From Oscillospiraceae bacterium (lineage in GTDB: Bacteria; Bacillota; Clostridia; Oscillospirales; Oscillospiraceae), in the NCBI GenBank assembly GCA_015068495.1, contig SVKL01000008.1:13892-77891 (forward strand): DNA of 64,000 bases, given 5' to 3'. Positions 37,623-57,801 of this stretch are shown one piece after another (within the stretch, counting starts at the first letter, position 1; each line of letters starts with the position of its first letter). The notes beneath the pieces are model-generated. The model was not told the origin of the DNA. It did not search any database and saw nothing but the letters and a program-made list of their open reading frames with translations. The translations under genes were made by a program, and so were the position numbers.

Positions 37623-38837
37623 ATGATGGGCTCTGAAATGAAGGTCAAGGCTGTTGGCTTTTGTGATGGTGTCTCTGTTTCCGCTATTGCCCCGTTGATG
37701 AATGATTTGTCCGTTGATGACGTATCTGAATATGCTGTTTTTCCCGGCTTTTGTGATGTGCACGTGCATTTCCGAGAGCCGGGATTTTCTTATAAAGAGA
37801 CCATTGAAAGCGGTTCAAAGGCATCTGCGCGGGGCGGTTACACAGCGGTTTGTACAATGCCCAACTTAAACCCCGTGCCGGACAGCGTGGCACATTTGGA
37901 CGAGCAGCTGAAACTGATTGAGGAGCAGGCGGTGATTCACGTCTACCCCTACGGCGCGATTACAGTGGGTGAGAAAGGTGAGCTGCTTGCAGATTTAGAG
38001 GGTATGGCGCCCAACTGTATTGCTTTTTCCGATGACGGACGAGGTGTGCAGAGCGATGATATGATGCGGCAGGCTATGCGCCGTGCCAAGGCACTGGGCA
38101 AAATGATTGTTGCCCACTGTGAGGTAAACGAGCTGCTGAAAGGCGGCTATATCCACGATGGTCAGTACGCAGCGGCTCATAACCACAAGGGCATCTGCAG
38201 CGCCAGCGAGTACGAACAAATCGCAAGAGATTTGCGCCTAGTGAGGGAAATCGGCTGCGCCTACCACGTGTGCCACATCTCCACGAAAGAGAGTGTGGAG
38301 CTGATCCGGCAGGCGAAGGCGGAAGGCTTGGATGTGACCTGTGAAACCGGCCCTCACTATCTGACGATGGACGACAGCTTCCTGCAGGAGGACGGCAGAT
38401 TCAAAATGAATCCTCCTTTGCGGGATAAAGCTGACAGGGAAGCGCTGGTTGCCGGTATTGTGGACGGCACAATCGATATGATTGCCACTGACCACGCGCC
38501 CCACAGCGCAGAAGAAAAGAGCAAGGGCTTAGCCGGCAGCGCCTTCGGTGTGGTTGGTATTGAAACAGCCTTCCCGGTGATGTATACCCACTTGGTAAAG
38601 TCCGGCGTGATTACTCTTGAAAAGCTTATTGACCTACTGAGCAATAACCCCCGTAAACGGTTTGGTCTGCCGGCAGGAAATGATTTTACAGTGTGGAATC
38701 TGAGTAAAGAATTTACAGTAGACCCGGCGCAATTCCTGTCTATGGGTAAGGCGACGCCCTTTGCTGGCTGGAAGTTAAATGGTGAATGTTTGCTGACCGT
38801 CTGCGACGGCAAGGCAGTGTATAAATTGGAGGAATGA
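37623..38837 (+). CDS. pyrC: Dihydroorotase (type I)
   Basis: DVHVHFREPG, TMPN, FSDDG, HVCHIST, KMNPPLR, ATDHAPH. Confidence 0.94.
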   Translation: MMGSEMKVKAVGFCDGVSVSAIAPLMNDLSVDDVSEYAVFPGFCDVHVHFREPGFSYKETIESGSKASARGGYTAVCTMPNLNPVPDSVAHLDEQLKLIEEQAVIHVYPYGAITVGEKGELLADLEGMAPNCIAFSDDGRGVQSDDMMRQAMRRAKALGKMIVAHCEVNELLKGGYIHDGQYAAAHNHKGICSASEYEQIARDLRLVREIGCAYHVCHISTKESVELIRQAKAEGLDVTCETGPHYLTMDDSFLQEDGRFKMNPPLRDKADREALVAGIVDGTIDMIATDHAPHSAEEKSKGLAGSAFGVVGIETAFPVMYTHLVKSGVITLEKLIDLLSNNPRKRFGLPAGNDFTVWNLSKEFTVDPAQFLSMGKATPFAGWKLNGECLLTVCDGKAVYKLEE

Positions 38838-38840
38838 AAA

Positions 38841-41800
38841 ATGGCAAAGAGAACGGACTTAAAGAAAATTCTGATTATCGGCTCCGGTCCTATCGTAATC
38901 GGTCAGGCCGCTGAATTTGACTATGCAGGTACACAGGCTTGCTTGGCGCTGAAGGAAGAGGGCTACGAGGTTGTCCTGTGCAACTCCAACCCTGCAACCA
39001 TTATGACGGATACTACCATTGCCGACAAGGTGTATATGGAGCCTCTGACACTGGAATATGTGGCAAAGATTATCCGCTACGAGCGTCCCGATGCCATTCT
39101 GCCCGGCATCGGCGGACAGACCGGTCTGAATCTTGTTATGCAGCTGGAGAAGAAGGGCGTTTTGAAGGAATGCCGCGTGGAGCTGCTGGGTACTTCCAGT
39201 GAATCCATCGAGCGGGCTGAGGACAGAGAACTGTTCAAGGAGCTGTGCCAGTCCATCGGCGAGCCTGTCATTCCCTCCGAGATTACCTATTCTATCGAGG
39301 AAGCGAAAGCGGCGGCTAAGCGGATTGGCTATCCTGTGGTGCTTCGTCCTGCCTTTACCTTGGGCGGCACCGGTGGCGGCTTTGCATATAGTGAAGAAGA
39401 GCTGGTGGAAATCGGCTTAAACGCATTTAAGCTGTCTCCTGTGCATCAGGTGCTCATTGAGAAATCCGTCAAGGGTTATAAGGAAATCGAATTTGAGGTT
39501 ATGCGTGACGGCAACGATCACGCCATCACCATCTGCGGTATGGAAAACATTGACCCTGTAGGCGTCCATACCGGCGATAGCTTGGTGGTTGCGCCGATTA
39601 TGACTCTGAGCGACCACGATTTGAAGATGCTGAACGATTCTGCTATCAAGATCATCAAGGAATTGAAGATTGCAGGTGGCTGTAACGTGCAGTTTGCCCT
39701 GAATCCCAATAGCTCTGAATACTACCTCATTGAGGTAAATCCCAGAGTTTCCCGTTCTTCCGCTTTGGCATCCAAGGCTTCCGGCTATCCCATTGCCCGC
39801 GTAACGGCTAAAATTGCCGTGGGTATGGCGCTGGAGGACATTAAGATTGCCAACACCAACGCTGCTTTCGAGCCGAAGCTGGACTATGTCATTGCCAAGC
39901 TGCCCCGTTTCCCCTTCGATAAGTTCACCTCTGCAACCAACCTGCTGGGCACCCAGATGAAAGCCACCGGTGAGGTTATGGGTATCGGCTCCAATCTGGA
40001 AGAAGCGCTGTTAAAGGGTATCCGTTCTCTGGAAATCGGCGCAAACCACCTGTACCTGTCCAAGTTTGACAATATGAGCGTGGAGGAGCTGCTGGACTAC
40101 ATCAAGCAGTTCCGTTCCGATAACATCTTTGCTATTGCGGAACTGCTGTACCACGGTGTTTCTGTGGAGAAGATTCACGAAATTACACAAATTACACCCT
40201 ACTTCCTGGAATCCATTCGCAAGATTATCGATATGGAGGAAGTCCTTCGGGTTAAGGTAAACGACGTGGATGCCCTGAAGCAGGCAAAGGTTATGGGCTT
40301 CAGCGACAGATATGTTGCACGGCTGTGGAAGTGCGCAGAAATGGATGTTTACAAGCTGCGTAAGGCCAACAATATGTTCCCGGTATTCAAGATGGTGGAT
40401 ACCTGCCATACCGGTGCATACATTCCTTATTTCTACTCCTCCTACACCGGAGAGAACACCTCTGTTCTTACCGATAAAAAGAAAATTGTGGTGCTGGGCG
40501 CCGGTCCTATCCGTATCGGTCAGGGTGTGGAATTTGACTATTCCACCGTTCACTCTGTAATGACCATTCGGGATGCAGGCTACGAGGCCATCATCATTAA
40601 CAACAACCCCGAAACCGTTTCCACCGACTACACCACCGCTGACAAGCTGTACTTTGAGCCACTGACACCTGAGGATGTTATGAACATCATTGAGTTTGAG
40701 AATCCTGTGGGTGTGGTTGCATCCCTTGGCGGTCAAACGGCTATCAATCTTGCTCAGCCTTTGGATGACCGGGGTGTAAAGATTATCGGCACAGATTGCG
40801 CTGCCATCGACAGAGCAGAGGACAGAAATGCCTTTGAAAACCTGCTCAACGACCTGAACATTCCCCGGGCTAAGGGTCAGGCTGTTACCAAGCTGGAAGA
40901 CGGTATTGCCGCCGCAGCGGAGATCGGCTATCCTGTGCTGGTGCGTCCTTCCTTTGTGCTGGGCGGCCGGGCAATGCAGATTGTTGCCAACGAGCAGCAG
41001 CTGCGTCACTACTTGCGTACCGCGGTTGAAATTGACGAGGACAAGCCCGTCTTGGTGGATAAGTATATTGAAGGCCGTGAAGTGGAGATTGACGCCATTT
41101 GCGACGGCCGGGATGTGTTTGTTCCCGGCATTATGGAGCTGGTAGAGCGTACCGGCGTCCACTCCGGCGACTCCATTTCTGTCTATCCCACCTTCTCTAT
41201 TTCCAACAAGGTTAAGGGTATCATCCTGCAGTATGCCAAAAAGCTGGGCTTGGGCATCGGCATTGTGGGTCTGTTCAATATCCAGTTCATCGTGGATAAG
41301 GACGATAATGTGTTTATTATCGAGGTAAATCCCCGTTCCTCCCGTACCGTGCCGTTCCTGAGTAAGGCAACCGGCTATTCCTTGGCAGATATTGCCACCG
41401 AGGTTATTTTGGGCAAGAGCCTGAAGGAGCAGGGCCTGTTTGACATCTACCCCGATGAGAAGGATCGCTGGTATGCCAAAGCACCTGTGTTCTCCTTCAA
41501 TAAAATCCGCGGACTGGACGCTTATCTGTCACCTGAAATGAAGTCCACCGGCGAAGCCATCGGCTACGACAGCACGATGAACCGCGCTTTGTATAAGGCG
41601 CTGCAGGCCTCCGGTATGCACCTGCAGAATTATGGTACTGTGCTGGTTACCATTGCAGACAAGGATAAGGAAGAGGCCCTGCCTTTGATTCGCCGCTTCT
41701 ATCAGCTGGGCTTCAACATTGAAGCAACTGAGGGCACTGCGGACTTCTTGAAAGCAAACGGAATCCGTACCCACAAGCTGGGCAAGATCGGCGACGGCAG

Positions 41801-42008
41801 CGAAGAGATTCCCAATGCGCTGCGTCAGGGCCACATTGCCTACGTGATTAACACCAAAGACCCCGGCAGCAACGGCAGTGACGGTGTGCAGATCCGTCAG
41901 ATTGCCACCGAGCATAATGTTTCTCTGTTCACTGCGTTGGATACCGTAAAGGTGCTGCTGGACGTTTTGGAAGAAACTACGCTGACCATTTCTACCATTG
42001 ATGCTTGA
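38841..42008 (+). CDS. carB: Carbamoyl-phosphate synthase large subunit
   Basis: GSGPIVIGQAAEFDYAG, two ATP-grasp halves, IEVNPRVSRSS and IEVNPRSSRT, C-terminal MGS domain. Confidence 0.97.
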   Translation: MAKRTDLKKILIIGSGPIVIGQAAEFDYAGTQACLALKEEGYEVVLCNSNPATIMTDTTIADKVYMEPLTLEYVAKIIRYERPDAILPGIGGQTGLNLVMQLEKKGVLKECRVELLGTSSESIERAEDRELFKELCQSIGEPVIPSEITYSIEEAKAAAKRIGYPVVLRPAFTLGGTGGGFAYSEEELVEIGLNAFKLSPVHQVLIEKSVKGYKEIEFEVMRDGNDHAITICGMENIDPVGVHTGDSLVVAPIMTLSDHDLKMLNDSAIKIIKELKIAGGCNVQFALNPNSSEYYLIEVNPRVSRSSALASKASGYPIARVTAKIAVGMALEDIKIANTNAAFEPKLDYVIAKLPRFPFDKFTSATNLLGTQMKATGEVMGIGSNLEEALLKGIRSLEIGANHLYLSKFDNMSVEELLDYIKQFRSDNIFAIAELLYHGVSVEKIHEITQITPYFLESIRKIIDMEEVLRVKVNDVDALKQAKVMGFSDRYVARLWKCAEMDVYKLRKANNMFPVFKMVDTCHTGAYIPYFYSSYTGENTSVLTDKKKIVVLGAGPIRIGQGVEFDYSTVHSVMTIRDAGYEAIIINNNPETVSTDYTTADKLYFEPLTPEDVMNIIEFENPVGVVASLGGQTAINLAQPLDDRGVKIIGTDCAAIDRAEDRNAFENLLNDLNIPRAKGQAVTKLEDGIAAAAEIGYPVLVRPSFVLGGRAMQIVANEQQLRHYLRTAVEIDEDKPVLVDKYIEGREVEIDAICDGRDVFVPGIMELVERTGVHSGDSISVYPTFSISNKVKGIILQYAKKLGLGIGIVGLFNIQFIVDKDDNVFIIEVNPRSSRTVPFLSKATGYSLADIATEVILGKSLKEQGLFDIYPDEKDRWYAKAPVFSFNKIRGLDAYLSPEMKSTGEAIGYDSTMNRALYKALQASGMHLQNYGTVLVTIADKDKEEALPLIRRFYQLGFNIEATEGTADFLKANGIRTHKLGKIGDGSEEIPNALRQGHIAYVINTKDPGSNGSDGVQIRQIATEHNVSLFTALDTVKVLLDVLEETTLTISTIDA

Positions 42009-42070: not shown

Positions 42071-42808
42071 ATGAAACAATCGAGTTTTACTGTTGTCAGC
42101 AATACCTCTCTGACTGACAATGTTTATAAAATGGTTCTGCAGGGCGACGTATCGGCTATTACTGCGCCGGGCCAGTTTGTCAACCTCAAGCTGGAGGGCC
42201 TGTATCTGCGCCGTCCCATCTCCGTGTGTGATTTGGATGGGGACAAGCTGACCATTGTTTATAAGGCGGTAGGTAAGGGAACAGAGCAGATGTCCCGTAT
42301 GACAGCAGGGGAGAAGCTGGATATTCTCACCGGCTTGGGCAACGGCTATGACCTGAGCCTGTCCGGCGAGAAGCCTGTGCTGCTGGGTGGCGGCGTAGGC
42401 GTGCCTCCTATGTATCTGCTTGCCAAAGAATTGCTGAAACAGGGCAAAAAAGTTTCTGTTATCTTGGGATTCAACACAAAATCCGAGATTTTCTACGAAG
42501 AAGAATTTGAAAAGCTTGGCTGCAATGTAACCGTTACAACCGTGGACGGTAGCTTTGGCACAAAAGGCTTTGTCACCACTGCATTGGAAGGGGTGGACTA
42601 TTCCTACTTCTATACCTGCGGTCCTGAGCCAATGCTGAAGGCTGTATATAAGGCATCCAATACTTCTGGGCAGATGAGCTTTGAAAAGAGGATGGGGTGT
42701 GGCTTTGGCGCATGTATGGGCTGCTCCTGCAAGACCCTCACCGGCTACAAGCGTATCTGCAAGGAAGGCCCTGTGATGAAAAAGGAGGAAATTCTATGGG
42801 AAGATTAA
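42071..42808 (+). CDS. pyrK: Dihydroorotate dehydrogenase electron transfer subunit
   Basis: PGQFV, RRPIS, GGGVG, CGPEPM, MGCGFGACMGC 2Fe-2S motif. Confidence 0.94.
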   Translation: MKQSSFTVVSNTSLTDNVYKMVLQGDVSAITAPGQFVNLKLEGLYLRRPISVCDLDGDKLTIVYKAVGKGTEQMSRMTAGEKLDILTGLGNGYDLSLSGEKPVLLGGGVGVPPMYLLAKELLKQGKKVSVILGFNTKSEIFYEEEFEKLGCNVTVTTVDGSFGTKGFVTTALEGVDYSYFYTCGPEPMLKAVYKASNTSGQMSFEKRMGCGFGACMGCSCKTLTGYKRICKEGPVMKKEEILWED

Positions 42809-43707
42809 GTGTTGACCTGTGTGGAATTACCCTTGATAATCCTGTAATTCCTGCCTCCGGCACCTTCGGCTACGGCTATGAGTATGCTGAAATTTATGAT
42901 ATCAACTGCCTTGGCACGTTCTCTTTTAAGGGCACAACCAAGGAGCCCCGTTTCGGCAACCCTACGCCCCGGATCGCTGAATGTACCGCCGGTATGATCA
43001 ATGCCGTTGGCTTGCAGAATCCCGGTGTGGAAAAGGTTATTGCCGAGGAACTACCGAAGCTGAAAAAATGCTTCCACAAGCCTGTTATGGCAAATATCAG
43101 CGGTTTTGGGGTAGAGGAGTATGCCTACACCTGCGAAAAGCTGGATAAGGAGGCGCAAGTCGGCTGGCTGGAAGTGAACGTCAGCTGTCCCAATGTCCAC
43201 GGCGGCGGTATGAGCTTCGGTACTGACCCGAAAGCAGCCGCTGAGGTGACGAAGGCAGTAAAGAAGGTCACCACCAAGCCGGTGATTGTAAAGCTGTCCC
43301 CCAACGTGACGGACATCGTTTCTATTGCAAAAGCCTGTGAAGATGCCGGCGCTGACGGTATCAGCCTGATTAACACAATGCTGGGTATGCGCATTGACCT
43401 GAAAACCCGCAAGCCGGTAATTGCCAACAAGATGGGCGGCTTCTCCGGCGCAGCAATTTTCCCTGTGGCGGTGCGTATGGTCTATCAGGTCGCCAATGCC
43501 GTCAAGATTCCCGTGGTGGGTATGGGCGGCGTAAGCAGTGCTGAGGACGTGATTGAGATGATGCTGGCTGGCGCAACTGCCGTTGAGGTGGGCGCAGCAA
43601 ACCTTGTGAACCCCTGCATTTGTCGGGATATTATCGAAGAACTTCCCGCAGTTATGGATAAATACAGAATCAATACATTAAGTGAAATTATCGGAGGTGC
43701 GAAATAA
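42796..43707 (+). CDS. pyrD: Dihydroorotate dehydrogenase B catalytic subunit
   Basis: [36 protein letters not shown]; ATG 42796 after AGGAGG. Confidence 0.95.
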
Positions 43708-44405
43708 TGGGTAAGGACGTGATTGTAGCCTGTGATTTTGCCAGCGCAGAGCAGACCTTTGCGTTTTTGGACAAGTTCACCGGCCGGAAGCCTTTCGTGA
43801 AAATCGGCATGGAGCTGTACTACGCAGAAGGCCCTGCCATCGTCAAGGAAATCAAGGCAAGAGGTCATAAGATTTTCTTGGATTTGAAGCTCCACGACAT
43901 TCCCAACACTGTCAAAAAGGCAATGGCAGTTTTGCGGAATCTGGATGTGGATATCACAAACCTGCACGCCGCCGGCACCAAGAATATGATGCGCGCCGCC
44001 TTGGAGGGCTTGACCCGTGAGGACGGCACCCGTCCGCTGCTGATTGCTGTGACCCAGCTGACCTCCACCGATCAGGAGAGTATGGAAAAGGACCTGCTCA
44101 TTGAAAAGCCTATTGATCAGGTGGTTATGCACTACGCCAAATGCGCCGAAGAGGCAGGTCTCGACGGCATCGTATGCTCACCGCTGGAGGCAGGCAAGGT
44201 CCACGATACCTGCGGCAAGAGCTTTTTGACTGTTACCCCCGGTGTCCGCTTTGCTGACGGCGATGTGGGTGACCAGAAGCGGGTTATGACCCCTGCGCAG
44301 GCTAAGGAAATCGGCTCCGACTATATTGTTGTGGGCCGTCCGATTACTGCTGCCGCCGACCCCGTGGCCGCCTACGAGCGCTGCATTGATGAATTCTGCG
44401 ACTAA
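43707..44405 (+). CDS. pyrF: Orotidine-5-phosphate decarboxylase
   Basis: [34 protein letters not shown]. Confidence 0.96.
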
Positions 44406-44408
44406 AAT

Positions 44409-44487
44409 TGTAGGGACCGGCGTCCTCGACGGTCCTATTGCAGAAGTCCGCTTTGCTGACGGACTGTCCGGGAGGCCAGTCCCTACA
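44409..44487. repeat. Inverted doublet of GTAG-type REP units (REPIN/BIME-like)
   Basis: TGTAGGGACCGGCGTCCTCGACGGTCC (44409-44435) and the reverse complement of TGTAGGGACTGGCCTCCCGGACAGTCC (44461-44487). Confidence 0.75.
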
Positions 44488-44512
44488 CATTTATCTTCAA
44501 AGGAGAACCATT

Positions 44513-45166
44513 ATGGAAGCCTATAAAAGAGAATTCATTGAATTCCTGCAGGATGCAGGTGTGTTGAAATTTGGCGATTTTACAGCCAAATCCGGCCGTA
44601 AAATTCCTTATTTTGTCAATGCCGGTATGATTAAGACCGGTGACCAAATTACCAAAATGGGCGAGTTCTACGCCAAGGCTTATTTTGACAAGCTGGGTAA
44701 AAAGCAGGCTGTCCTGTACGGACCTGCCTATAAGGGTATTTCTCTGTCCATTTCTGCCGCTGTGGCGCTGTCCCGTAACGGTCTGAATGTTCCTTTCTTC
44801 TTTAACCGTAAGGAAGTGAAAGACCACGGTGAAGGCGGTACATTCGTAGGCTACGTTCCTCAGGCCGGCGAAGAAATCGTCATAATTGAAGACGTAATTA
44901 CAGCCGGCACTGCTATCCGTGAGTCTATGGAAATCCTCAGCCACTTGGATGGCACGAAAGTTATTGCCACCTTCATTATGGTTGACCGGAAAGAGAAGGG
45001 TCAGACCGAGAAGGGTGCTATGCAGGAGATTGAAGAGCAGTTCGGCTTCCCTGTGTACTCTGTTGTGGACGTTTATGACATTATCGAGTATTTGGAGGAA
45101 GACCCTGCCAACGAAGAAAACGTTACCCGTATTAAGAACTATCTGGCTGTGAATGGAGCGAAATAA
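44513..45166 (+). CDS. pyrE: Orotate phosphoribosyltransferase
   Basis: [40 protein letters not shown]; ATG 44513 after AAGGAG. Confidence 0.95.
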
Positions 45167-46254
45167 TGAGAAGCTTGATTGACATTGTAGATTTTTCCGT
45201 TGAGGAAATTCAGCAGCTGCTGGAGACTGCCTGCGACATCAGCGAAAATCCTGCAAAGTATGCAGAACGCTGCCGTGGCAAGAAGCTGGCAACGCTGTTC
45301 TATGAGCCTTCCACCCGTACCCGCCTTAGCTTTGAAGCGGCTATGTATGAGTTGGGCGGTAACGTGCTGGGCTTTAGCGAGGCGGCATCTTCTTCTGCCG
45401 CAAAGGGAGAGAGCATGGCAGACACTGCAAAAATGCTCTCCTGCTATGCGGATATTATGGCAATCCGTCATCCCAAGGAGGGTGCGCCTTTCGTAGCTGC
45501 AACCAATGCCACCATTCCCGTTATCAATGCCGGTGATGGCGGCCATTGCCACCCCACACAGACCTTGGCTGACCTGCTGACCGTTTATCGGGAAAACGGA
45601 AGACTCCACGATTTGACCATCGGCTGCTGTGGTGATTTGAAATATGGCAGAACGGTGCACTCCTTGATATCTGCTTTTTCACGGTACGACAATATCAAGT
45701 TTGTCCTGATTTCTCCCGAAGAGCTGAAGCTACCCAAGTACGTAAAGTATGAGGTGCTGGATAAAAACGGTATGCAGTATGTGGAAACAACCTCTTTGGA
45801 GGAGGCAATGCCGCAGCTGGATGTTTTGTATATGACCCGTATCCAACGGGAGCGCTTTGACAGCTTTGACGAGTATGAGCGTTTGAAGGACAGCTATATT
45901 CTGACACCTGAGAAGATGGCAGCGGCTAAGCCCACTATGCGCGTGCTGCACCCCCTTCCCAGAGTGAATGAAATCAGCGTAAAGGTGGATGAAGATCCCC
46001 GGGCAGCCTATTTCCGCCAGGCGCTGAACGGCAAGTATATGCGTATGGCGCTGATTCTCAAGCTGCTCAAAGAGGCTGAGGAAGGCAAGCAGATGGAGCC
46101 GGTGAATGCTGTGGAGAACAGTGCTCTTATCTGTGATAACCCCCGCTGTATTTCCTCTACCGAGCAGGAGCTTCCCCACAGATTTAAGCTGGTGGATGCA
46201 GAACGTGGCATTTACCGGTGCATCTATTGCGAGGGTAAAAAAACCTTGGGTTGA
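45166..46254 (+). CDS. pyrB: Aspartate carbamoyltransferase with a fused C-terminal PyrI-type zinc domain
   Basis: [29 protein letters not shown]; extension CDNPRC...RCIYCE. Confidence 0.94.
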
Positions 46255-46497: not shown

Positions 46498-46986
46498 ATG
46501 AAAAAAGTTGGCATTGTAATGGGCAGTGACAGTGATTTGCCCATCGTCCAAAAGGCAATTGATATGCTAAAGAGCCTTGAAATTCCTTATGAGGTGCACA
46601 TCTATTCTGCCCACAGAACGCCTGTTGAAGCGCGGGATTTTGCGCTCAATGCAAGAGTAAACGGTTTTGGAGCGATTATCTGTGCTGCCGGTATGGCGGC
46701 GCATTTGGCAGGCGCGATTGCCGCCAACACAACCCTTCCTGTGGTGGGAATTCCCTGCAAGGGTGGAATGATGGACGGAATGGACGCGTTGCTGTCTACA
46801 GTGCAGATGCCCACAGGTATCCCTGTGGCTACCGTCGCGATTAATGGTGCGGCCAATGCGGCGCTTCTGTGTGCACAAATTTTGGCTGTTGAAGACAAGG
46901 GGTTGGCTGAAAAATTGGATGCCAAACGCAAGAGCGATGCCGCTAAGGTCCTGCAAAAGGATGCGGATATTGCTGCAAATCTGTAA
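46498..46986 (+). CDS. purE: AIR carboxylase / N5-CAIR mutase
   Basis: MGSDSD, SAHRTP, AGMAAHLAG, PVVGIP, QMPTGIPVATV. Confidence 0.96.
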   Translation: MKKVGIVMGSDSDLPIVQKAIDMLKSLEIPYEVHIYSAHRTPVEARDFALNARVNGFGAIICAAGMAAHLAGAIAANTTLPVVGIPCKGGMMDGMDALLSTVQMPTGIPVATVAINGAANAALLCAQILAVEDKGLAEKLDAKRKSDAAKVLQKDADIAANL

Positions 46987-47028
46987 TTTCTGAGTTATAC
47001 ACTCACTATGATAAAGGAGAAATTGATT

Positions 47029-47715
47029 ATGGAAAAGAAGCTTATTTACACCGGTAAGACCAAAAATGTTTATGAACTGCCCAACGGTAACTGCCTGTTG
47101 CTGTTTAAGGACGACTGCACCGGTAAGGACGGTGTGTTTGATCCCGGTGAGAACGCCGTTGGCTTGACCATCGAGGGTGTAGGTGATGTAAACCTGCGTA
47201 TGTCCATTTACTTCTTCGAAAAAATCAATGCTGCCGGTATTAAGACCCACTATGTGTCTGCTGATTTGGCTAGCACCACTATGGAAGTTTTGCCCGCCAA
47301 GGTGTTTGGTAAGGGTCTGGAGGTTATCTGCCGTTGTAAAGCAGTAGGCTCCTTCTTCCGCCGCTACAATGAATATTGTACCGAGGGTCAGGACCTGCCT
47401 TTCTATGTTGAGACCACCTTCAAGAACGATGCACTGGGTGATCCTCTGGTTACCAAGGACGGTCTTGTTGATTTGGGCGTTATGACTGCAGAGCAGTATG
47501 ATTCTCTGAAGGCTCAGACACAGGCAATTACCAAGATCGTTGCCGATGATTTGGCAGCCAAGGGTTTGGATCTGTATGATATCAAGTTTGAATTCGGTTA
47601 CGACCCTGATGGCAACGTAATGCTCATTGATGAGGTTGCATCCGGCAATATGCGTGTCTATAAGGACGGTCAGTACATTGACCCCATGACCCTGAACAAG
47701 CTGTTCTTTGCCTAA
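47029..47715 (+). CDS. purC: SAICAR synthetase
   Basis: YTGKTK, FKDD, LEVICR, ETTFKND, DIKFEFG, LIDE; ATG 47029 after AAGGAG. Confidence 0.93.
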
Positions 47716-47738
47716 ATTCTGATTAAGGAGCTTGCCCC

Positions 47739-49163
47739 ATGGGAGGATTTTTTGGAGTTACATCCAAGGTCGATTGTATGATGGATGTATTTTTCGGTGT
47801 GGATTACCATTCTCATTTGGGTACTCGCCGCGGCGGTATGGCTGCGTGGGACCCGGAGATTGGTTTGCAGCGGAAGATTCACAGTATTGAAAATTCCCCG
47901 TTTCGCACCAAATTTGAGCATATTTTTGATGAGATGCAAGGCACCTCTGTTATCGGCTGCATCAGCGATACAGACCCCCAACCTATGCTGATTCGTTCCC
48001 ATTTGGGAACCTACGCCATTTCCACTGTCGGCGTTATCAACAATGCTGACGAGCTGATTCAGCAGGTGATGGACAACCACGGCGGTTACTTTGACGCAAT
48101 GACCGGTGGCAGAGTCAATTCCACTGAGCTGGTTGCGGCGCTGATTAACCGGAAAGAGAACTTCGTTGCCGGTATTCAGTATGCCCAATCCGTGATTGAC
48201 GGAACAGCGAATATTTTGATTCTTACCGATAAGGGCAGTTTGATTGCCGCCCGTGACCGTCTGGGCAGAATCCCCGTGCAGATCGGCAGGGACGAAAACG
48301 GATACTGCGCCTCTTTTGAGGAATTTGCATTTACCAAGCTGGGCTATGAAAAAGTATGTGAGCTTGGCCCCAGCGAAATTGTGGAGCTGACGCCGGATTC
48401 TATGACCCAGTTGGCTGCCCCCGGAGACAAGATGAAGGTCTGCGCCTTCCTGTGGAGCTACTATGGCTATCCTACCTCTACCTACGAGGGGATTAACGTG
48501 GAATCTATGCGCTACCGTAACGGCGCGACCATTGCCGAGCGGGATATGGAAAAAGGCCGCAGTATGGACATTGACTATGTAGGCGGTGTTCCCGACTCCG
48601 GCACACCCCACGCCATTGGCTATGCCAATCGGACGGGTAAGCCCTTTGCCCGGGCATTTATTAAATACACACCTACCTGGTCCCGTTCCTTCACCCCTGC
48701 CAAGCAGGCCGACCGGAAAAAGGTGGCGAAGATGAAGCAGATTCCTGTCCACGATTTGATTAAAGGCAAAAAGCTTTTGTTTGTGGACGATTCCATTGTC
48801 CGTGGCACCCAGCTGCAGGAAACGGTGGAATTCCTTTACGAAAACGGTGCGAAGGAAGTCCATATGCGGTCTGCCTGCCCGCCGATTATGTATGGCTGTA
48901 AATATCTGAACTTTTCCCGTTCTACCTCGGATATGGATCTCATTTCCCGCCGTGTGATTATGGAGCTGGAAGGTGAGGAAGGGTTCAAGCACATAGAGGA
49001 GTATGCCGACGGCAACACAGAGCGTGGCAAAAAAATGCGCCAGACTATCTGTGAGAAGTTTAAGTTTGCATCCTTAGGCTTCCAGACGGTGGACGGCGTT
49101 GTCAAGGCAATCGGCATTGAGCCTTGCAAGCTTTGCACCTACTGCTGGAACGGTAAAGAATAA
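47739..49163 (+). CDS. purF: Amidophosphoribosyltransferase, variant lacking catalytic Cys1
   Basis: PRT domain VPDSG, FVDDSIVRGT, ACPP and C-terminal CTYC; N-terminus MGGFFG. Confidence 0.93.
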   Translation: MGGFFGVTSKVDCMMDVFFGVDYHSHLGTRRGGMAAWDPEIGLQRKIHSIENSPFRTKFEHIFDEMQGTSVIGCISDTDPQPMLIRSHLGTYAISTVGVINNADELIQQVMDNHGGYFDAMTGGRVNSTELVAALINRKENFVAGIQYAQSVIDGTANILILTDKGSLIAARDRLGRIPVQIGRDENGYCASFEEFAFTKLGYEKVCELGPSEIVELTPDSMTQLAAPGDKMKVCAFLWSYYGYPTSTYEGINVESMRYRNGATIAERDMEKGRSMDIDYVGGVPDSGTPHAIGYANRTGKPFARAFIKYTPTWSRSFTPAKQADRKKVAKMKQIPVHDLIKGKKLLFVDDSIVRGTQLQETVEFLYENGAKEVHMRSACPPIMYGCKYLNFSRSTSDMDLISRRVIMELEGEEGFKHIEEYADGNTERGKKMRQTICEKFKFASLGFQTVDGVVKAIGIEPCKLCTYCWNGKE

Positions 49164-49177
49164 ATAAGGAGAAGCGT

Positions 49178-50230
49178 ATGGAACATAAGAATTCCCAGTC
49201 TGCCAGCTATGCTGCTGCCGGTGTGGACATTACCGCCGGCTATAAGGCTGTTGAACTGATGAAGAAGCATATCAAGCGCACAAAAAATGAGGGCTGCTTG
49301 GACGATGTTGGCGGCTTTGGCGGCTGCTTTGGTCTGAACATTGCCGGTATGGAAGAGCCTGTGCTGGTCTCCGGTACAGACGGCTGCGGCACAAAAGTCA
49401 AGCTTGCTATTTTAATGGACAAGCACGATACCATCGGTATTGACGCGGTGGCAATGTGCGTTAACGATATTATCTGCTGCGGCGCAAAGCCTTTGTTTTT
49501 CCTTGATTACATTGCTTGCGGTAAGAATTATCCCGAGAAAATCGCGGCCATTGTGGGCGGCGTAGCAGAGGGCTGCGTTCAGTCCGGCGCAGCGCTCATC
49601 GGCGGTGAAACTGCCGAGCATCCCGGCTTGATGCCGCTTGAAGACTATGACCTTGCAGGCTTTGCAGTTGGTGTTGTGGACAAGAAGAAAATTATCGACA
49701 ACACCCGTATGGCAGCAGGGGATGTGGTGATTGCGCTGGCATCTACCGGTATCCATTCTAACGGTTTCTCTCTGTGCCGTAAGGTGTTTGATATTGATAA
49801 CAACCCGGCAGAGCTGTATGTTGCCCGTGAGGAGTTGGACGGTAAGAGTGTTGCAGAAGCGTTGCTCGTACCTACACGTATCTACGTAAAGTCCATCCTT
49901 GCTCTGTTGGAGCAGGTGGATGTAAAGGGTATCTCCCACATCACCGGCGGCGGCTTTTATGAGAATATTCCCCGTTCCATCCCCGATGGCTTGGGTGCAG
50001 TAATCGAAAAGAATGCTGTTAAGGTGCTGCCTATTTTCGATATGATTGCCAAGACCGGCAATATCCCTGAGCGTGATATGTTCAACACCTACAATATGGG
50101 TGTGGGTATGAGCGTCGTGGTAAAGCCTGAGGAAGTAGAGAAGGCATTGGAAATCCTTACCGCCCACGGGGAAAATGCCTATGTGATCGGTAAGATTGTA
50201 GCCTCTGACGAGAAGATTACCATTGTGTGA
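49178..50230 (+). CDS. purM: Phosphoribosylformylglycinamidine cyclo-ligase
   Basis: YAAAGVDI, GTDGCGTK, AMCVND, GGETAEHPG, SHITGGG. Confidence 0.97.
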   Translation: MEHKNSQSASYAAAGVDITAGYKAVELMKKHIKRTKNEGCLDDVGGFGGCFGLNIAGMEEPVLVSGTDGCGTKVKLAILMDKHDTIGIDAVAMCVNDIICCGAKPLFFLDYIACGKNYPEKIAAIVGGVAEGCVQSGAALIGGETAEHPGLMPLEDYDLAGFAVGVVDKKKIIDNTRMAAGDVVIALASTGIHSNGFSLCRKVFDIDNNPAELYVAREELDGKSVAEALLVPTRIYVKSILALLEQVDVKGISHITGGGFYENIPRSIPDGLGAVIEKNAVKVLPIFDMIAKTGNIPERDMFNTYNMGVGMSVVVKPEEVEKALEILTAHGENAYVIGKIVASDEKITIV

Positions 50231-50238
50231 GGTAGGAA

Positions 50239-50835
50239 ATGGTGAAAGCGAGAATTGCTGTGCTGGTGTCCGGCGGCGGCACGAACCTGCAGGCGCTGAT
50301 TGACGCGCAAGGCAGCGGAATTATTCACAGCGGAGAAATCTGCCTTGTGATTTCCAATAATCGGGATGCCTATGCTTTGCAGCGCGCGGCAAATGCGGGA
50401 ATAGCCACCGAGGTTGTCCTGAAAAAGGAACTGGGCAGCCAAGCCGCATTTGAAGAGAAAATCAAAGAATTGCTCACCGAAAATAGGATTGACATCATTG
50501 TTCTTGCGGGCTTTATGTCCATTTTAAGTGAGGCGTTCACCTCCTGCTATCCCAAGCGGATTCTCAATGTCCACCCGTCGCTGATTCCGTCTTTTTGCGG
50601 TGAGGGCTTTTATGGTCTCCGGGTTCACGAGGCAGCGCTTAATTATGGCGTGAAGGTCACCGGCGCAACCGTTCACTTTGTTAACGAGATTCCCGACGGC
50701 GGTGAGATCATTCTCCAAAAGGCTGTGGAAATTCAGCCGGAGGACACACCTGAAACCCTGCAAAAACGGGTGATGGAACAAGCAGAATGGAAGATTTTAC
50801 CTGCCGCAGTTGAGCAGGTTTGCAGTATGCTGTGA
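50239..50835 (+). CDS. purN: Phosphoribosylglycinamide formyltransferase
   Basis: SGGGTNLQA, LAGFM, NVHPSLIP, GATVHFV..DGG. Confidence 0.96.
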   Translation: MVKARIAVLVSGGGTNLQALIDAQGSGIIHSGEICLVISNNRDAYALQRAANAGIATEVVLKKELGSQAAFEEKIKELLTENRIDIIVLAGFMSILSEAFTSCYPKRILNVHPSLIPSFCGEGFYGLRVHEAALNYGVKVTGATVHFVNEIPDGGEIILQKAVEIQPEDTPETLQKRVMEQAEWKILPAAVEQVCSML

Positions 50836-50851
50836 GAAAGGAATTTGCAAT

Positions 50852-51565
50852 ATGAATGTTTATGAAGTTGGCTCTCTTGCTGAGAAGCTGTCTACCAATG
50901 TGTATCCCGGCCGTGGCATTGTGTTAGGTGTAACTCCCGACGGCACTAAGTCTGTTGCTGCTTATTTCATTATGGGCCGCAGCGTCAATAGTCGCAACCG
51001 TGTGTTTGTACAGGAGCCGGACGGTATCCGCACCGAAGCTCATGATCCCAGCCTGATGAAAGACCCTCATCTGATTATTTACCATCCTGTCCGTGAAGCA
51101 GGCTGTGGTTTGATTGTTACCAACGGTGACCAGACCGATACCATTTGGGAATACCTTGCCAAGGGCGAAAGCTGGGAAGCTGCTCTGCGTACCCGTTGTT
51201 TCGAAGATGACGGCCCTAACTGGACACCTCGTATTTCCGGCTTGCTGGCAGGTGACGGAAGCTACAAGATGTCCATTTTGAAGTCTGCTGATGCAGAGGG
51301 CACAGCCTGCGCAAGATTTTTCTATGAGTATCCTGCAATCGCCGGACTGGGTCACTTTATCCACACCTATGTGTGCGATGGTAACCCCGTAATCCCCACA
51401 TTCCAAGGGGAGCCGGAGCGTGTGGCTATGGATAACGATATGGATGCCTTTGCGGAAATGCTGTGGAACAACTTGAATGAAGACAATAAAATCTCCCTGT
51501 TCGTCCGTTACACTGATTTGAAGACCGGCAGCTACGAGCAGAAGATTTACAACAAACATAACTAA
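50852..51565 (+). CDS. purO: Stand-alone IMP cyclohydrolase, PurO-like (Ntn fold)
   Basis: YPGRGI, YFIMGRS.NSRNR, LIIY, VTNGDQTD, FEDD.PNWTPRISG; ATG 50852. Confidence 0.85.
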   Translation: MNVYEVGSLAEKLSTNVYPGRGIVLGVTPDGTKSVAAYFIMGRSVNSRNRVFVQEPDGIRTEAHDPSLMKDPHLIIYHPVREAGCGLIVTNGDQTDTIWEYLAKGESWEAALRTRCFEDDGPNWTPRISGLLAGDGSYKMSILKSADAEGTACARFFYEYPAIAGLGHFIHTYVCDGNPVIPTFQGEPERVAMDNDMDAFAEMLWNNLNEDNKISLFVRYTDLKTGSYEQKIYNKHN

Positions 51566-51577
51566 GGAGTAGGGAAG

Positions 51578-52762
51578 ATGAAAGAGTTTGAACTGAAATA
51601 CGGCTGTAACCCCAATCAAAAGCCTGCAAAGATTTATATGCACGACGGCACCGACCTGCCCATCCAGATTCTCAACGGCCGCCCCGGCTTTATTAATTTC
51701 CTGGATGCCTTCAACTCTTGGCAGCTGGTGAAGGAGCTGAAGGAAGCTACCGGTATGTGCGCTGTTACCTCTTTTAAGCACGTTTCTCCTACTTCTGCCG
51801 CTGTTGGCAAGAAGCTGCCTATAGAGCTGAAAAAGGCTTGCTTTGTGGAAGATATCGAAGGCTTGGATGAGAATCCTTTGGCTTGCGCATATGCCCGTGC
51901 CCGTGGTGCAGACCGTCTGTGCTCCTTTGGCGACTGGGTGGCACTGAGTGACACCTGCGACGCGCTGACAGCCAAGCTCATTGCCCGCGAGGTATCCGAC
52001 GGCGTGATTGCTCCCGGCTACACCGATGAGGCGCTGGAGATTCTGAAGACCAAACGTGGCGGCAACTATAACGTAGTTGCTATTGACCCCAACTTCGTTC
52101 CTGCTGAACAGGAAACCAAGCAGGTGTTCGGTATTACTTTCCAGCAGGGCCGCAACAACTTCAAAATTGACAATGCACTTTTGGAGAACATTGTTACTGA
52201 TAATAAGAACTTTACCGAGGACGCAAAGACTGACTTGATCATCTCCCTGATTACCCTGAAGTACACACAGTCTAATTCCGTCTGCTTTGCTTATGACGGA
52301 CAGGCTATCGGTGTTGGTGCCGGTCAGCAGTCCCGTGTGCACTGCGTAAGACTTGCAGGCGGTAAGGCTGACACTTGGTTCCTCCGCCAGCACCCCAAGA
52401 CCTTGAATCTTCCTTTCCGCGAGGACTTGGGCCGTCCCGGCCGTGACAATGCCATCGACGGCTATATCAACGGCAACGAGGAGGATGTCTGCGCTGAGGG
52501 TATCTGGCAGAACTACTTTACCACCCGTCCCGAGCCTCTGACCGAGGCTGAAAAGCGTGCATTCTTGGATGCGCAGACCGGTGTTGCGCTGGGTTCTGAC
52601 GCTTTCTTCCCGTTCCCGGACAGTATTAAGCGTGCTAAAGCCTCCGGTGTTTCCTACGTCGCTGAGCCCGGCGGCTCTATCCGTGATGACCTTGTGATTG
52701 CTGAGTGCAATAAGAATAATATGGTTATGGCATTCACCGGAATGCGTCTGTTCCACCACTAA
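51578..52762 (+). CDS. purH: AICAR transformylase lacking the IMP cyclohydrolase domain
   Basis: LKYGCNPNQ, FKHVSP, KYTQSNSV, GAGQQSRVHC, SDAFFPF, GMRLFHH; no MGS-like N-terminal domain. Confidence 0.92.
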   Translation: MKEFELKYGCNPNQKPAKIYMHDGTDLPIQILNGRPGFINFLDAFNSWQLVKELKEATGMCAVTSFKHVSPTSAAVGKKLPIELKKACFVEDIEGLDENPLACAYARARGADRLCSFGDWVALSDTCDALTAKLIAREVSDGVIAPGYTDEALEILKTKRGGNYNVVAIDPNFVPAEQETKQVFGITFQQGRNNFKIDNALLENIVTDNKNFTEDAKTDLIISLITLKYTQSNSVCFAYDGQAIGVGAGQQSRVHCVRLAGGKADTWFLRQHPKTLNLPFREDLGRPGRDNAIDGYINGNEEDVCAEGIWQNYFTTRPEPLTEAEKRAFLDAQTGVALGSDAFFPFPDSIKRAKASGVSYVAEPGGSIRDDLVIAECNKNNMVMAFTGMRLFHH

Positions 52763-52837
52763 AATACCTTTGCCACACCGTCTTTTGCGGTGTGGCAATC
52801 GGTCTGTTTTACGAATCTGACATTTTGGAGAGTATCT

Positions 52838-54106
52838 ATGAAAATATTGGTTGTTGGCGGTGGCGGAAGAGAACATGCCATCATTAAAAAACTGAAAGAG
52901 AATAAGACAGTTACAGAAATTTTTGCAACCCCCGGCAATGGCGGTATTGCCAAGGATGCTACCTGTGTAGACATCGGCGCAAAGGAGATTGATAAAATTG
53001 TTGCCTTTGCAGTTGAGAATGCCATTGACTATGCGGTGGTTGCTCCCGATGACCCTCTGGTGCTGGGTTGCGTAGACGCATTGGAGGAGAAGGGGATTCC
53101 TTGCTTTGGACCTCGCGCCAATGCTGCCATTATTGAAGGCAGTAAGGTTTTTTCCAAAAACCTGATGAAAAAATATAATATTCCCACTGCAGCGTATGAA
53201 GTGTTCACCGATATGGATGCGGCAATTTCCTATTTGGAAACTGCTCCAATTCCTACGGTCATCAAGGCTGACGGACTTGCATTGGGCAAGGGCGTTATTA
53301 TTGCGGAAACCCGTGAGGATGCCAAGGCTGCTGTGAAATCTATGATGTCCGATAAGGTCTTCGGCAAAAGCGGTGACCAGATTGTCATTGAGGAATTCCT
53401 CACCGGTCCTGAGGTGTCTGTGCTTGCCTTTACCGACGGCAAGACAGTGAAGCCTATGATTTCCTCTATGGACCATAAGCGGGCAGGGGATAACGATACA
53501 GGCCTCAACACCGGCGGCATGGGCACGGTTGCTCCCAACCCCTACTACACTGCCGATATTGCTAAGGTGTGTATGGAAACCATTTTCCTGCCTACCATCG
53601 CCGCAATGAATGCCGAGGGCCGTACCTTTAAGGGCTGCTTGTACTTTGGCTTGATGCTCACCCCCAACGGCCCTAAGGTTATTGAGTACAACTGCCGTTT
53701 CGGCGACCCGGAGACGCAGGTGGTGCTGCCGCTGCTGGAAAGTGATCTGCTCACCGTTATGCAGGCAACCACCAACGGCACCTTGGCAGAAACCGAGGTT
53801 AAATTTGCCGACAAGAACGCCTGCTGCGTGATTATGGCGTCCAAGGGTTATCCCACCGCCTACGAAAAGGGCTTTGAGATGACCGTTCCGGAGGCAATTT
53901 GGAATAATGTCTATGTGGCAGGCGCTGCATTAAAGGACGGAAAGCTTCTGACAAACGGCGGCCGTGTCCTTGGCGCAACTGCTGTTGCTGACACCTTAGA
54001 GAACGCCATTAACGAGGCTTATAAAATGGTAGAAACCATTCATTTTGACAATGCTTATTATCGTCACGATATTGGCGCGAAGGCTATGAAAGCCGGGAGG
54101 AATTAA
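52838..54106 (+). CDS. purD: Phosphoribosylamine--glycine ligase
   Basis: VVGGGGREHA, KADGLALGKGV, EYNCRFGDPE, TNGGRVL; ATG 52838. Confidence 0.97.
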   Translation: MKILVVGGGGREHAIIKKLKENKTVTEIFATPGNGGIAKDATCVDIGAKEIDKIVAFAVENAIDYAVVAPDDPLVLGCVDALEEKGIPCFGPRANAAIIEGSKVFSKNLMKKYNIPTAAYEVFTDMDAAISYLETAPIPTVIKADGLALGKGVIIAETREDAKAAVKSMMSDKVFGKSGDQIVIEEFLTGPEVSVLAFTDGKTVKPMISSMDHKRAGDNDTGLNTGGMGTVAPNPYYTADIAKVCMETIFLPTIAAMNAEGRTFKGCLYFGLMLTPNGPKVIEYNCRFGDPETQVVLPLLESDLLTVMQATTNGTLAETEVKFADKNACCVIMASKGYPTAYEKGFEMTVPEAIWNNVYVAGAALKDGKLLTNGGRVLGATAVADTLENAINEAYKMVETIHFDNAYYRHDIGAKAMKAGRN

Positions 54107-54108
54107 CA

Positions 54109-57100: not shown

Positions 57101-57801
57101 TTCGCAACCTGACCGCTGATGATGTTGCCAAGAGCGTGGAAAGCGTAGCTGCGAAGATTGCAGACAGCCAGATGATTTTCATTCCCGGCGGTTTCTCCGG
57201 CGGTGACGAGCCGGACGGCTCTGCCAAGTTCATTACCGCCTTCTTCCGCAACCCTGCCATCAAGGAGCAGGTGACAAAGCTGCTGGAAGAGCGGGACGGC
57301 TTGATGTGCGGCATCTGTAACGGCTTCCAAGCGCTGATTAAGCTGGGCTTGGTGCCTTACGGCAAGATTATTGATACCGACGAGAATTGCCCCACCTTGA
57401 CCTTCAATACCATTTCCCGTCACCAGTCCAAAATTGTCCGTACCCGTATCGCATCCAACAAGTCGCCTTGGCTGAGGCTGATGAATGTGGGTGACGTTGT
57501 GAATGTTCCCATTTCCCACGGCGAGGGTCGCTTCTATGCATCTGAGGAATTGGCAATGAAATTGGCTGAAAACGGTCAGATTGCCACCCAGTATGTGGAC
57601 TTGGACGGCAATCCCACTATGGATACCGCTTTCAACCCCAACGGCTCTCTGTTTGCTATCGAGGGTATTACCTCTCCCGACGGCAGAGTCATCGGTAAGA
57701 TGGGTCACAGCGAGCGTATCGGCGCAGGCCTTTACAAGAACGTACCTGGTAACTACGATATCCGTATGTTTGAAGCCGCAGTTAAATATTTTAAGGGCTA
57801 A
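54109..57801 (+). CDS. purL: Fused large FGAM synthase (PurS-PurL-PurQ)
   Basis: WSDHCRH, KNETHNHPTEIEPFGGAAT, DFGAGG, ISESQERM; GATase FPGTNCE, GICNGFQ, GHSER. TTG start. Confidence 0.97.
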   Translation: MVYRVYVEKKEALANEAKALLNDARNLLGIKALENVRLLNRYDAENITKELFDYAIDTVFSEPQLDIATAEYELAGATVFAVEPLPGQFDQRADSAAQCIQIISQGERPLIRSAKVYGLYGKLTEEEITAIKKHVINPVECREAELTLPETLKADYAIPQSVATVDGFIGLDEKGLSDLLDKLGLAMDLDDLKFLQNYFRDEEKRDPTITEIRVVDTYWSDHCRHTTFSTIIDDVKISDPAVAAAYKRYLDARVEVYGEEKAAKRPQTLMDIATIGAKTLKKRGLLPELDESEEINACSIHVTAKVNGEDQDWLLMFKNETHNHPTEIEPFGGAATCIGGCIRDPLSGRAYVHQAMRVTGAADPRKPLNETIPGKLPQRKLCQTAAAGYSSYGNQIGLATGHVAEIYHDGYAAKRLECGAVVGAAPAYNVRRERPAAGDVVVLLGGRTGRDGIGGATGSSKSHNMKSLTTMASEVQKGNAPEERKIQRLFRDSAVTRLIKRCNDFGAGGVSVAIGELAAGLQIDLDAVRKKYDGLDGTEIAISESQERMAVVVAAEDADTFIAAAQKENLEAYRVAVVTEEERMVMVWKGQTVANLSRAFLDTNGASKHTKVDVTEKDLSVLSNALYGSLREMAGDLKTASRRGLVERFDGSIGAGSVLMPFGGKTQTTPAQAMAAVLPVLPGQETSQGSVMAWGLDPDMMSVDPYTGSRAAIYTSMAKLVAAGADYKKAYLTLQEFFEKLKAEPARWGKPFAALLGALDAQLELGAAAIGGKDSMSGSFMDMDVPPTLISFAIAPIDKEQVLTPEFKTAGNPVYLFGPTDETAESQKQAWEYFHQLHLAGKVNAGWAVENGLGEAVMKMSFGNRIGFASCGAVGEEWHKNLYGFIVAELTEDVDLPGVLKIGETTAEAAIVLDGDSASIDELLAINEGILEDVYTTVVPEDKGQIPAFNYTGTVAKAPAVKCAKPKVLIPVFPGTNCEFDSARAVIAAGADAEIAVIRNLTADDVAKSVESVAAKIADSQMIFIPGGFSGGDEPDGSAKFITAFFRNPAIKEQVTKLLEERDGLMCGICNGFQALIKLGLVPYGKIIDTDENCPTLTFNTISRHQSKIVRTRIASNKSPWLRLMNVGDVVNVPISHGEGRFYASEELAMKLAENGQIATQYVDLDGNPTMDTAFNPNGSLFAIEGITSPDGRVIGKMGHSERIGAGLYKNVPGNYDIRMFEAAVKYFKG

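Follow-up and report, generated by a model that had tools for sequence, protein, structure and literature searches.

Can CarB, the large subunit of carbamoyl-phosphate synthase (CPS), serve a bacterium without its glutaminase subunit CarA? The question is raised by a carB gene at positions 38841-42008 of a 64,000-nucleotide (nt) stretch of DNA from an uncultured gut Oscillospiraceae bacterium (GenBank assembly GCA_015068495.1, contig SVKL01000008.1), hereafter the window. Our sequence analysis leads us to conclude, with good confidence, that this CarB is a stand-alone, single-subunit, ammonia-dependent CPS. The original prediction, made from the sequence alone, had proposed such an enzyme, and it is supported by the lack of CarA in the genome, by the separate CarB that accompanies carA in relatives, by the count of 0 of 157 loci with carA beside this type of CarB, and by an intact enzyme under purifying selection. 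Unlabelled coordinates are those of the window and residue numbers those of E. coli CarB unless stated. G000 is the source genome; L and G numbers label the loci and genomes that were compared, and C numbers their contigs.

A carB gene without carA in the pyr operon

The gene is the second of a tightly packed operon in the order pyrC-carB-pyrK-pyrD-pyrF-pyrE-pyrB. Only 3 nt separate the pyrC stop codon (TGA, 38835-38837) from the carB ATG at 38841. There is no room for carA between the two genes, and none was found in the rest of the operon or in the window. The junction and the Pfam assignments of the operon thus bear out that pyrC abuts carB and that the operon is devoid of carA.

37623-38837, forward strand: pyrC (dihydroorotase), Pfam Amidohydro_1 and DHOase
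38828-38833, forward strand: Shine-Dalgarno sequence GGAGGA of carB, read from the sequence, within the last pyrC codons and 7 nt upstream of the ATG
38841-42008, forward strand: carB, full-length CPS large subunit of 1055 residues, from the open reading frame (ORF), Pfam and curated profiles

The encoded protein reaches 1403 bits against TIGR01369 (cut-off 1027) and 1441 bits against NF003671 (cut-off 599). All Pfam domains of CarB are present, namely two pre-ATP-grasp/ATP-grasp modules, the oligomerisation domain and the MGS-like allosteric domain. Its alignment with E. coli CarB (1BXR chain A) runs end to end, residue 1 to residue 1, at about 46% identity.

CarA is very probably absent from the genome

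The assembly of the source genome comprises 1.77 Mb in 40 contigs and is 92.9% complete. The CarA N-terminal domain (PF00988) has no match in it, and 14 of 14 control genomes were positive in the same search; tblastn with a CarA of the same genus also gave no match in this genome. There is a single CarB, and the class-I glutamine amidotransferase (GATase) domains are limited to HisH and an unassigned hydrolase-like protein of 238 residues. It is very likely that the genome truly has no carA. Nothing in it reaches the cut-off for carbamate kinase, the match being ProB, and ArgF, ArgG and ArgH are present, as is PyrB. Because ArgF and PyrB are there and no CarA, second CarB or carbamate kinase was found, the window CarB must be the only source of carbamoyl phosphate in this genome, feeding PyrB, encoded in the same operon, and ArgF, and hence both the pyrimidine and the arginine pathway.

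The unassigned 238-residue protein (G000:C9:105453-106166, L005:1231-1944) is an orphan, amidotransferase-like and peptidase C26-like. Its gene adjoins that of a glycerophosphodiester phosphodiesterase, and it falls under every curated family cut-off.

Relatives with CarA have a second CarB

Among 36 species genomes of the same genus, 15 contain carA. Each of the 15 carA genes is immediately followed by the gene of a second CarB paralogue, which shares 66-74% identity with the window CarB, and in the loci that were read carA and carB overlap by a few bases. The stand-alone type, 80-91% identical to the window CarB, is always found as pyrC-carB-pyrK, and none of 157 loci has carA beside it. In carA-positive genomes, the co-resident stand-alone CarB carries the same changed motifs as ours.

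The phylogeny agrees with this division. The stand-alone type is monophyletic (Shimodaira-Hasegawa-like approximate likelihood ratio test, SH-aLRT, 100) and nested, together with the CarA-linked paralogues, in a clade that is also supported at 100; ordinary carAB CarBs of Firmicutes (about 50% identity) fall apart from that clade. The nesting among linked paralogues therefore places the origin of the stand-alone CarB in the duplication of a partnered one.

Of the 12 close linked loci, 11 encode a CarA with an intact Cys-His-Glu triad; in G057 the triad is dead. In this CarA (L041:1158-2252, G057:C10) the glutaminase triad is gone, with GICLGHQ changed to GIGLGCQ and HPE to QLD. The partner CarB of G057 has lost Tyr261 and has kept Arg265 and CAAEF, and the genome may represent an intermediate state in which the partner is kept and the glutaminase is dead.

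In the relatives G027 and G022, carAB is the last element of a cluster purA-purB-guaA-glmS-pyrG-purF-carA-carB:

L197:434-13870 (G027:C33): glutamine cluster, guaA with GATase domain, purF with catalytic Cys
L205:177-13726 (G022:C69): glutamine cluster, guaA with GATase domain, purF with catalytic Cys

A glutamine-type purF or pyrG lies directly upstream of carA in 8 of the 12 close loci. None of the genes of this cluster, including purA, purB and glmS, was found in the source genome, and in a synteny comparison the regions that border the cluster in G027 and in G022 proved to be either missing from the source genome or rearranged in it.

These observations raise the possibility that carA and the rest of the glutamine cluster do exist and fell into a gap of the assembly, in which case the cell would not be ammonia-only and CarB might borrow a CarA. 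The 92.9% completeness in 40 contigs would allow it; purA, purB and glmS, which adjoin carAB in relatives and are usually indispensable, are missing here too; and six of the seven nearest neighbours in the CarB tree come from carA-positive genomes. However, none of the searched small-genome carriers of this CarB has purA; among them are assemblies that are 96-100% complete and in as few as 20 contigs (G049, G051, G062, G098, G102 and G088) and 9 of 9 small genomes of the same genus. The gene is present in 8 of 8 searched same-genus genomes of at least 1.9 Mb. True PurB shows the same split in the nine genomes searched. The absence of purA and purB tracks the small-genome carriers and is therefore a trait of the lineage, not an assembly gap. 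In addition, G002, which is 99% complete, has lost carA and keeps only a 3' remnant of the linked carB; and where carA exists it has a CarB of its own, the stand-alone CarB of the same genomes having the changed motifs. A gap in the assembly is thus an improbable explanation, and we retain the reading that this CarB works without CarA.

Two of three changed motifs are specific to the stand-alone clade

We compared 34 stand-alone with 20 CarA-linked CarBs; the latter include E. coli, and 12 of them are close paralogues. Four regions of the window CarB are concerned:

39594-39638, forward strand: motif 1, PIMTLSDHDLKMLND, equivalent to E. coli 252-266 (PAQTLTDKEYQIMRN), with Gln254 changed to Met, Tyr261 to Leu, Gln262 to Lys and Arg265 to Asn
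39846-39866, forward strand: motif 2, IANTNAA in a shortened loop, 4 residues shorter than in E. coli
40122-40196, forward strand: oligomerisation-domain substitutions Asn428 (E. coli Arg435) and Thr452 (E. coli Asp459)
40398-40418, forward strand: motif 3, DTCHTGA, equivalent to E. coli 530-538 (DTCAAEFAT), with Ala533 changed to His and Glu535-Phe536 deleted (2 residues)

The original prediction had read the three motifs as a degenerated CarA interface. Its readings and coordinates prove exact against the alignment with 1BXR chain A, and so does its statement that Gln262, Arg265 and Asn266 are Lys, Asn and Asp here. The interpretation fares differently from motif to motif, and is supported for motifs 1 and 3 only.

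In motif 1, the stand-alone clade has Met for Gln254, Leu, Glu or a variable residue for Tyr261, Lys for Gln262 and Asn for Arg265, while the CarA-linked CarBs keep Tyr261 in 19 of 20 cases and Arg265 in all 20. In motif 3, the clade has DTCHT followed by the two-residue deletion, and Ala533, Glu535 and Phe536 are found in 20/20 linked CarBs. Arg435 (20/20) and Asp459 (18/20) of the oligomerisation domain are likewise kept in the linked set. The close linked paralogues retain these features as well, with Tyr261 in 11 of 12, and Arg265 and CA(x)EF in all 12. The residues of CarA-partnered CarBs (Tyr261, Arg265, Arg435, Ala533, Glu535 and Phe536) are all replaced or deleted in the window CarB, and the stand-alone states of motifs 1 and 3 occur in none of the CarBs with an adjacent carA. 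As judged from this comparison, the changes in motifs 1 and 3 are specific to the stand-alone clade.

On the other hand, the same 4-residue loop deletion is present in all 12 close CarA-linked paralogues; because of this, the shortened loop of motif 2 is unrelated to the loss of CarA and, on the alignment, is not a marker of it. Position 266 is uninformative because Asn266 is not conserved among CarA-partnered CarBs: the Asp of the window CarB is also found in 11 of the 12 close linked CarBs, and the distant ones have Ser or Thr.

Discriminating columns were defined as at least 90% conserved in the 20 linked and at most 5% present in the 34 stand-alone CarBs. Only 16 columns qualify, among them E. 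coli 260, 261, 265, 435, 459, 533, 535, 536, 546 and 552, and all of them lie in the N-terminal half (E. coli 2-567). In E. coli CPS this is the half that CarA binds. According to the work of Raushel and Holden, CarA reportedly sits on the carboxyphosphate and oligomerisation domains, and Arg265 helps to form the wall of the tunnel where the two subunits meet, with Tyr261 hydrogen-bonding ammonia there.

The two segments have evolved differently. Segment 254-265 is one of the few stretches that are more variable in the stand-alone than in the linked clade, despite the stand-alone clade being less variable overall, which indicates relaxed constraint on it. Segment 528-540 hardly varies among the stand-alone CarBs, so motif 3 was remodelled and then fixed. 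A complex prediction of CarB residues 1-560 with the CarA of G027 (alignments of both proteins supplied) scored 0.26 against a mark of 0.32 and gives no evidence either way.

A scan of 185,579 species genomes with back-translated motif 3 returned at least 120 loci, which puts the motif in at least 120 species of gut Clostridia. The taxa among the matches listed are all gut or rumen Clostridia (Oscillospiraceae, Acutalibacteraceae, Faecousia, Ruminococcus sp. and a few Christensenellaceae), and carA was found at none of these loci among the matches listed.

The same segments are lost in other CarB lineages

Extra CarBs were drawn from class-level genomes where no carA was found. Four of them belong to the stand-alone clade, though the genomes they come from are assigned by GTDB to other orders. 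The remaining ones fall into three separate lineages, namely a deep clade (L052, L192-L194; 43-47% identity), L190 and L191, and all three are without Tyr261 and without the DTCAAEF segment. The exception is an extra CarB copy at a contig start, L195, which keeps both segments. This independent loss is the best evidence that the two segments exist for CarA, as far as sequences can tell.

L052:1699-4902, L192-L194, L208:6001-9216, L210:6001-9219: deep-clade carB loci

CarBs of the deep clade are often listed under names of Lachnospiraceae and Erysipelotrichaceae. In two contigs (2.3 and 2.8 Mb) its carB is monocistronic with no carA nearby, and it may be of the Bacteroides CarB2 type discussed below.

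The convergent losses bear on the second alternative, by which the motif changes have nothing to do with CarA and reflect lineage drift, or an adaptation of the oligomerisation domain or of regulation. Motif 2 and Asn266 did prove unrelated to CarA, and motif 3 is fixed and not relaxed. Yet at least three further CarB lineages, all from genomes in which carA was not found, have independently lost the same two segments, and these are kept in 20/20 CarA-linked CarBs from E. coli to Clostridia; moreover, 16/16 discriminating columns fall in the half that binds CarA in E. coli CPS. We consider it very improbable that the changes are independent of CarA.

An intact enzyme and how it would use ammonia

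The catalytic apparatus is preserved, in agreement with the earlier claim, borne out by the alignment with E. coli, that the ATP-grasp motifs are intact. Both ATP-grasp active sites are conserved across the stand-alone clade at all residues checked: Arg129, Arg169, Glu215, Asn236, Asp238, His243, Gln285, Glu299, Asn301, Arg303 and Arg306, and Arg715, Glu761, Gln829, Glu841, Asn843, Arg845 and Arg848. Equally unchanged across the clade are the five glutamates of the carbamate tunnel, the residues of the nucleotide effector site for uridine and inosine monophosphate (UMP/IMP), and Cys232, Ala251 and Ala314, which are the ammonia gate residues of CPS (PMC8674909, PMC4655335). The ratio of nonsynonymous to synonymous substitution rates (dN/dS) of carB against five relatives is 0.05-0.10, showing strong purifying selection. 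Conserved catalytic residues and low dN/dS lead us to reject a pseudogene or a non-CPS function, and apart from the remodelled segments the protein is, to judge by its residues, an intact and functional enzyme.

We propose that a partnered CarB was duplicated within gut Oscillospirales and that two surface segments of the copy were then lost or remodelled. The resulting protein would take ammonia as its substrate and would not bind CarA, the changed residues lining the former CarA contact. Free ammonia would reach the carboxyphosphate site directly, via the opening that CarA otherwise covers, and would react with carboxyphosphate to carbamate; the carbamate would then travel along the conserved internal tunnel and be phosphorylated at the second ATP-grasp site.

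That an unrelated glutaminase instead feeds CarB in trans and keeps it glutamine-dependent is extremely unlikely, as the candidate, the orphan 238-residue protein of contig C9, has a class-I GATase fold with a weak match to the CarA C-terminal domain (26-30 bits) but no CarA N-terminal domain, is best matched by a gamma-glutamyl hydrolase type (75 bits against a cut-off of 250) and is encoded beside the glycerophosphodiester phosphodiesterase, away from the pyr genes, and CarB itself has lost residues that all CarA-partnered forms keep.

Several points weigh against an ammonia-dependent stand-alone enzyme. Isolated E. coli CarB has a poor affinity for ammonia, and no adaptation that would remedy this was identified in the window CarB. 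The invariance of motif 3 within the clade speaks for a new constraint and not for plain decay, so the segment may serve another purpose. That the changed residues contact CarA is a deduction from convergent loss and from the background on E. coli CPS. The assembly is fragmented (40 contigs) and incomplete (92.9%), and carA-positive genomes supply six of the seven nearest tree neighbours. Finally, the support consists of sequence and genome data.

Other nitrogen-donor enzymes of the genome

The other enzymes that take nitrogen from glutamine were considered in the same genome. It has no PyrG and instead encodes PyrJ/DUF1846 (G000:C11:24462-25457, L184); PyrJ is a proven ammonia-only cytidine triphosphate (CTP) synthase (bioRxiv 10.1101/2024.09.24.614635). 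Its GuaA (G000:C19:22219-23154, L185), a 346-residue ORF, is too short for a fused glutaminase, and the GATase domain is absent. PurF is without the catalytic Cys that the PurF of the relatives' cluster has. GlmS is absent and NagB is present (G000:C9:110792-111574), 58% identical to the E. coli enzyme. HisH is still there. The picture is of a genome that has dropped most of its glutaminase partners. The large single-chain formylglycinamidine ribonucleotide (FGAM) synthase PurL (54109-57801) keeps a PurQ-type glutaminase domain.

We see an about even chance that our bacterium and the other small-genome Oscillospirales with this CarB depend almost entirely on free ammonia for making nucleotides and amino sugars, and that larger relatives add one compact glutamine cluster (guaA-glmS-pyrG-purF-carA-carB) which is gained or lost approximately as a unit. 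In this joint proposal, the ammonia-run set would be formed by the stand-alone CarB, PyrJ, the Cys-less PurF, GuaA without a glutaminase domain, and NagB in place of GlmS. If it is true, the choice of nitrogen donor is a modular, switchable trait in gut Clostridia. The combination of this CarB with PyrJ, Cys-less PurF and glutaminase-less GuaA suggests that the bacterium depends on ammonia, which is high in the gut. Databases name such CarBs "glutamine-hydrolyzing", and metabolic models of these gut and rumen bacteria would thus assign the wrong nitrogen donor.

In G002 (99% complete, no carA), the locus L199:835-7599 (G002:C26) holds only the last approximately 300 codons of the linked carB, after purA-purB-pyrG, and its glutamine-type purF aligns in two overlapping pieces, possibly by a frameshift. 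The locus looks like a decaying carAB with the loss in progress.

The remaining genes of the pyr operon are the following:

42071-42808, forward strand: pyrK (dihydroorotate dehydrogenase B electron-transfer subunit), Pfam DHODB_Fe-S_bind and NAD_binding_1
42697-43707, forward strand: pyrD, maximal ORF with the true start probably at about 42805; Pfam DHO_dh matches from ORF residue 37
43707-44405, forward strand: pyrF, Pfam OMPdecase
44438-45166, forward strand: pyrE, Pfam Pribosyltran
45166-46254, forward strand: pyrB fused to the PyrI zinc domain, Pfam OTCace_N, OTCace and PyrI_C

Of PyrI, the PyrB catalytic chain carries the zinc-binding domain alone in this fusion (45166-46254), a separate pyrI being absent. 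Downstream, 46498-57801 is occupied by a full purE-purC-purF-purM-purN-purO-purH-purD-purL operon. PurA and PurB were not found in the genome, whose Lyase_1 proteins are limited to ArgH and an AspA-like enzyme; relatives with 96-100% complete genomes likewise have neither, and share a divergent PurC below the curated cut-off. The steps from succinylaminoimidazolecarboxamide ribonucleotide (SAICAR) to aminoimidazolecarboxamide ribonucleotide (AICAR) and from IMP to adenosine monophosphate (AMP) are thus without an assigned enzyme here. Two operon ORFs were considered as a hidden PurB and rejected: the one of 251 residues is an IMP cyclohydrolase and the one of 449 residues is DUF4179/DUF5643.

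Comparison with known carbamoyl-phosphate synthases

Textbooks describe all characterised bacterial CPSs as glutamine-dependent. The E. coli CarA-CarB enzyme, CPS II (1BXR, 1JDB, 1C30), shares with the window CarB the domain order, catalytic residues, carbamate tunnel and ammonia gate, whereas the window CarB has no small subunit and has Gln254, Tyr261, Gln262, Arg265, Arg435, Asp459, Ala533, Glu535 and Phe536 replaced or deleted. Neither the encoded CarA nor the partner residues that define the glutamine-dependent CPS II heterodimer (EC 6.3.5.5) are found. The CarA-linked CarB paralogues of the same genus are closer, with 66-74% identity, membership in the same clade and the same 4-residue loop deletion; an example is that of G027 (L035:2194-5370), the last gene of a purF-carA-carB block, which differs in that its gene start overlaps the end of a carA (L035:1107-2204) with an intact Cys-His-Glu triad.

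Ammonia use has precedents outside bacteria. Animal CPS I (human CPS1, 5DOT/5DOU) belongs to the ATP-grasp family, has the conserved ammonia gate and is ammonia-dependent (PMC4655335). Unlike the window CarB, which is without such a moiety, it has a fused inactive glutaminase-like moiety and needs N-acetylglutamate. The carbamate-kinase-like CPS of Pyrococcus and other Thermococcales offers an analogy, as it needs no glutaminase to produce carbamoyl phosphate from ammonia; it has, however, an unrelated fold, that of the amino-acid kinases, and no such protein reaches the cut-off in the source genome.

The closest known case is the lone CarB2 (BT3866) of Bacteroides thetaiotaomicron, which Liu et al. 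2021 (Cell Rep, PMC8121099) proposed, from fitness data, to be an ammonium-dependent CPS. CarB2 was needed only when ammonium was present, and the same paper states that all characterised bacterial CPSs are glutamine-dependent and that E. coli CarB in isolation uses ammonia to form carbamoyl phosphate (PMC8121099). We found no later follow-up to the proposal in the literature. The idea of an ammonia-fed lone CarB has thus already been put forward for Bacteroides, and our reading of the window CarB is not new in this respect. What we add is a control from paralogues within the genus, the finding that two of the motifs are valid and one is not, the convergent losses and the glutamine-enzyme cluster of the relatives.

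By analogy, the two proteins resemble each other as full-length CarBs without a cognate carA, in gut anaerobes, for which ammonia use is proposed; moreover, like CarB2 in B. thetaiotaomicron, the stand-alone CarB shares the genome with a canonical carAB in relatives of our bacterium. They differ in that the window CarB lies inside a pyr operon and is the sole CPS, with no carAB as back-up, and in that it arose in Clostridia from a CarA-partnered paralogue. The nesting of the clade among CarA-linked CarBs of Clostridia suggests an origin separate from that of BT3866. The only published exception to glutamine dependence is the genetic inference for CarB2, in an organism that still has CarAB. In the present case a CarB is the sole CPS of a widespread group of gut Clostridia, so that the proposal can be tested with one protein.

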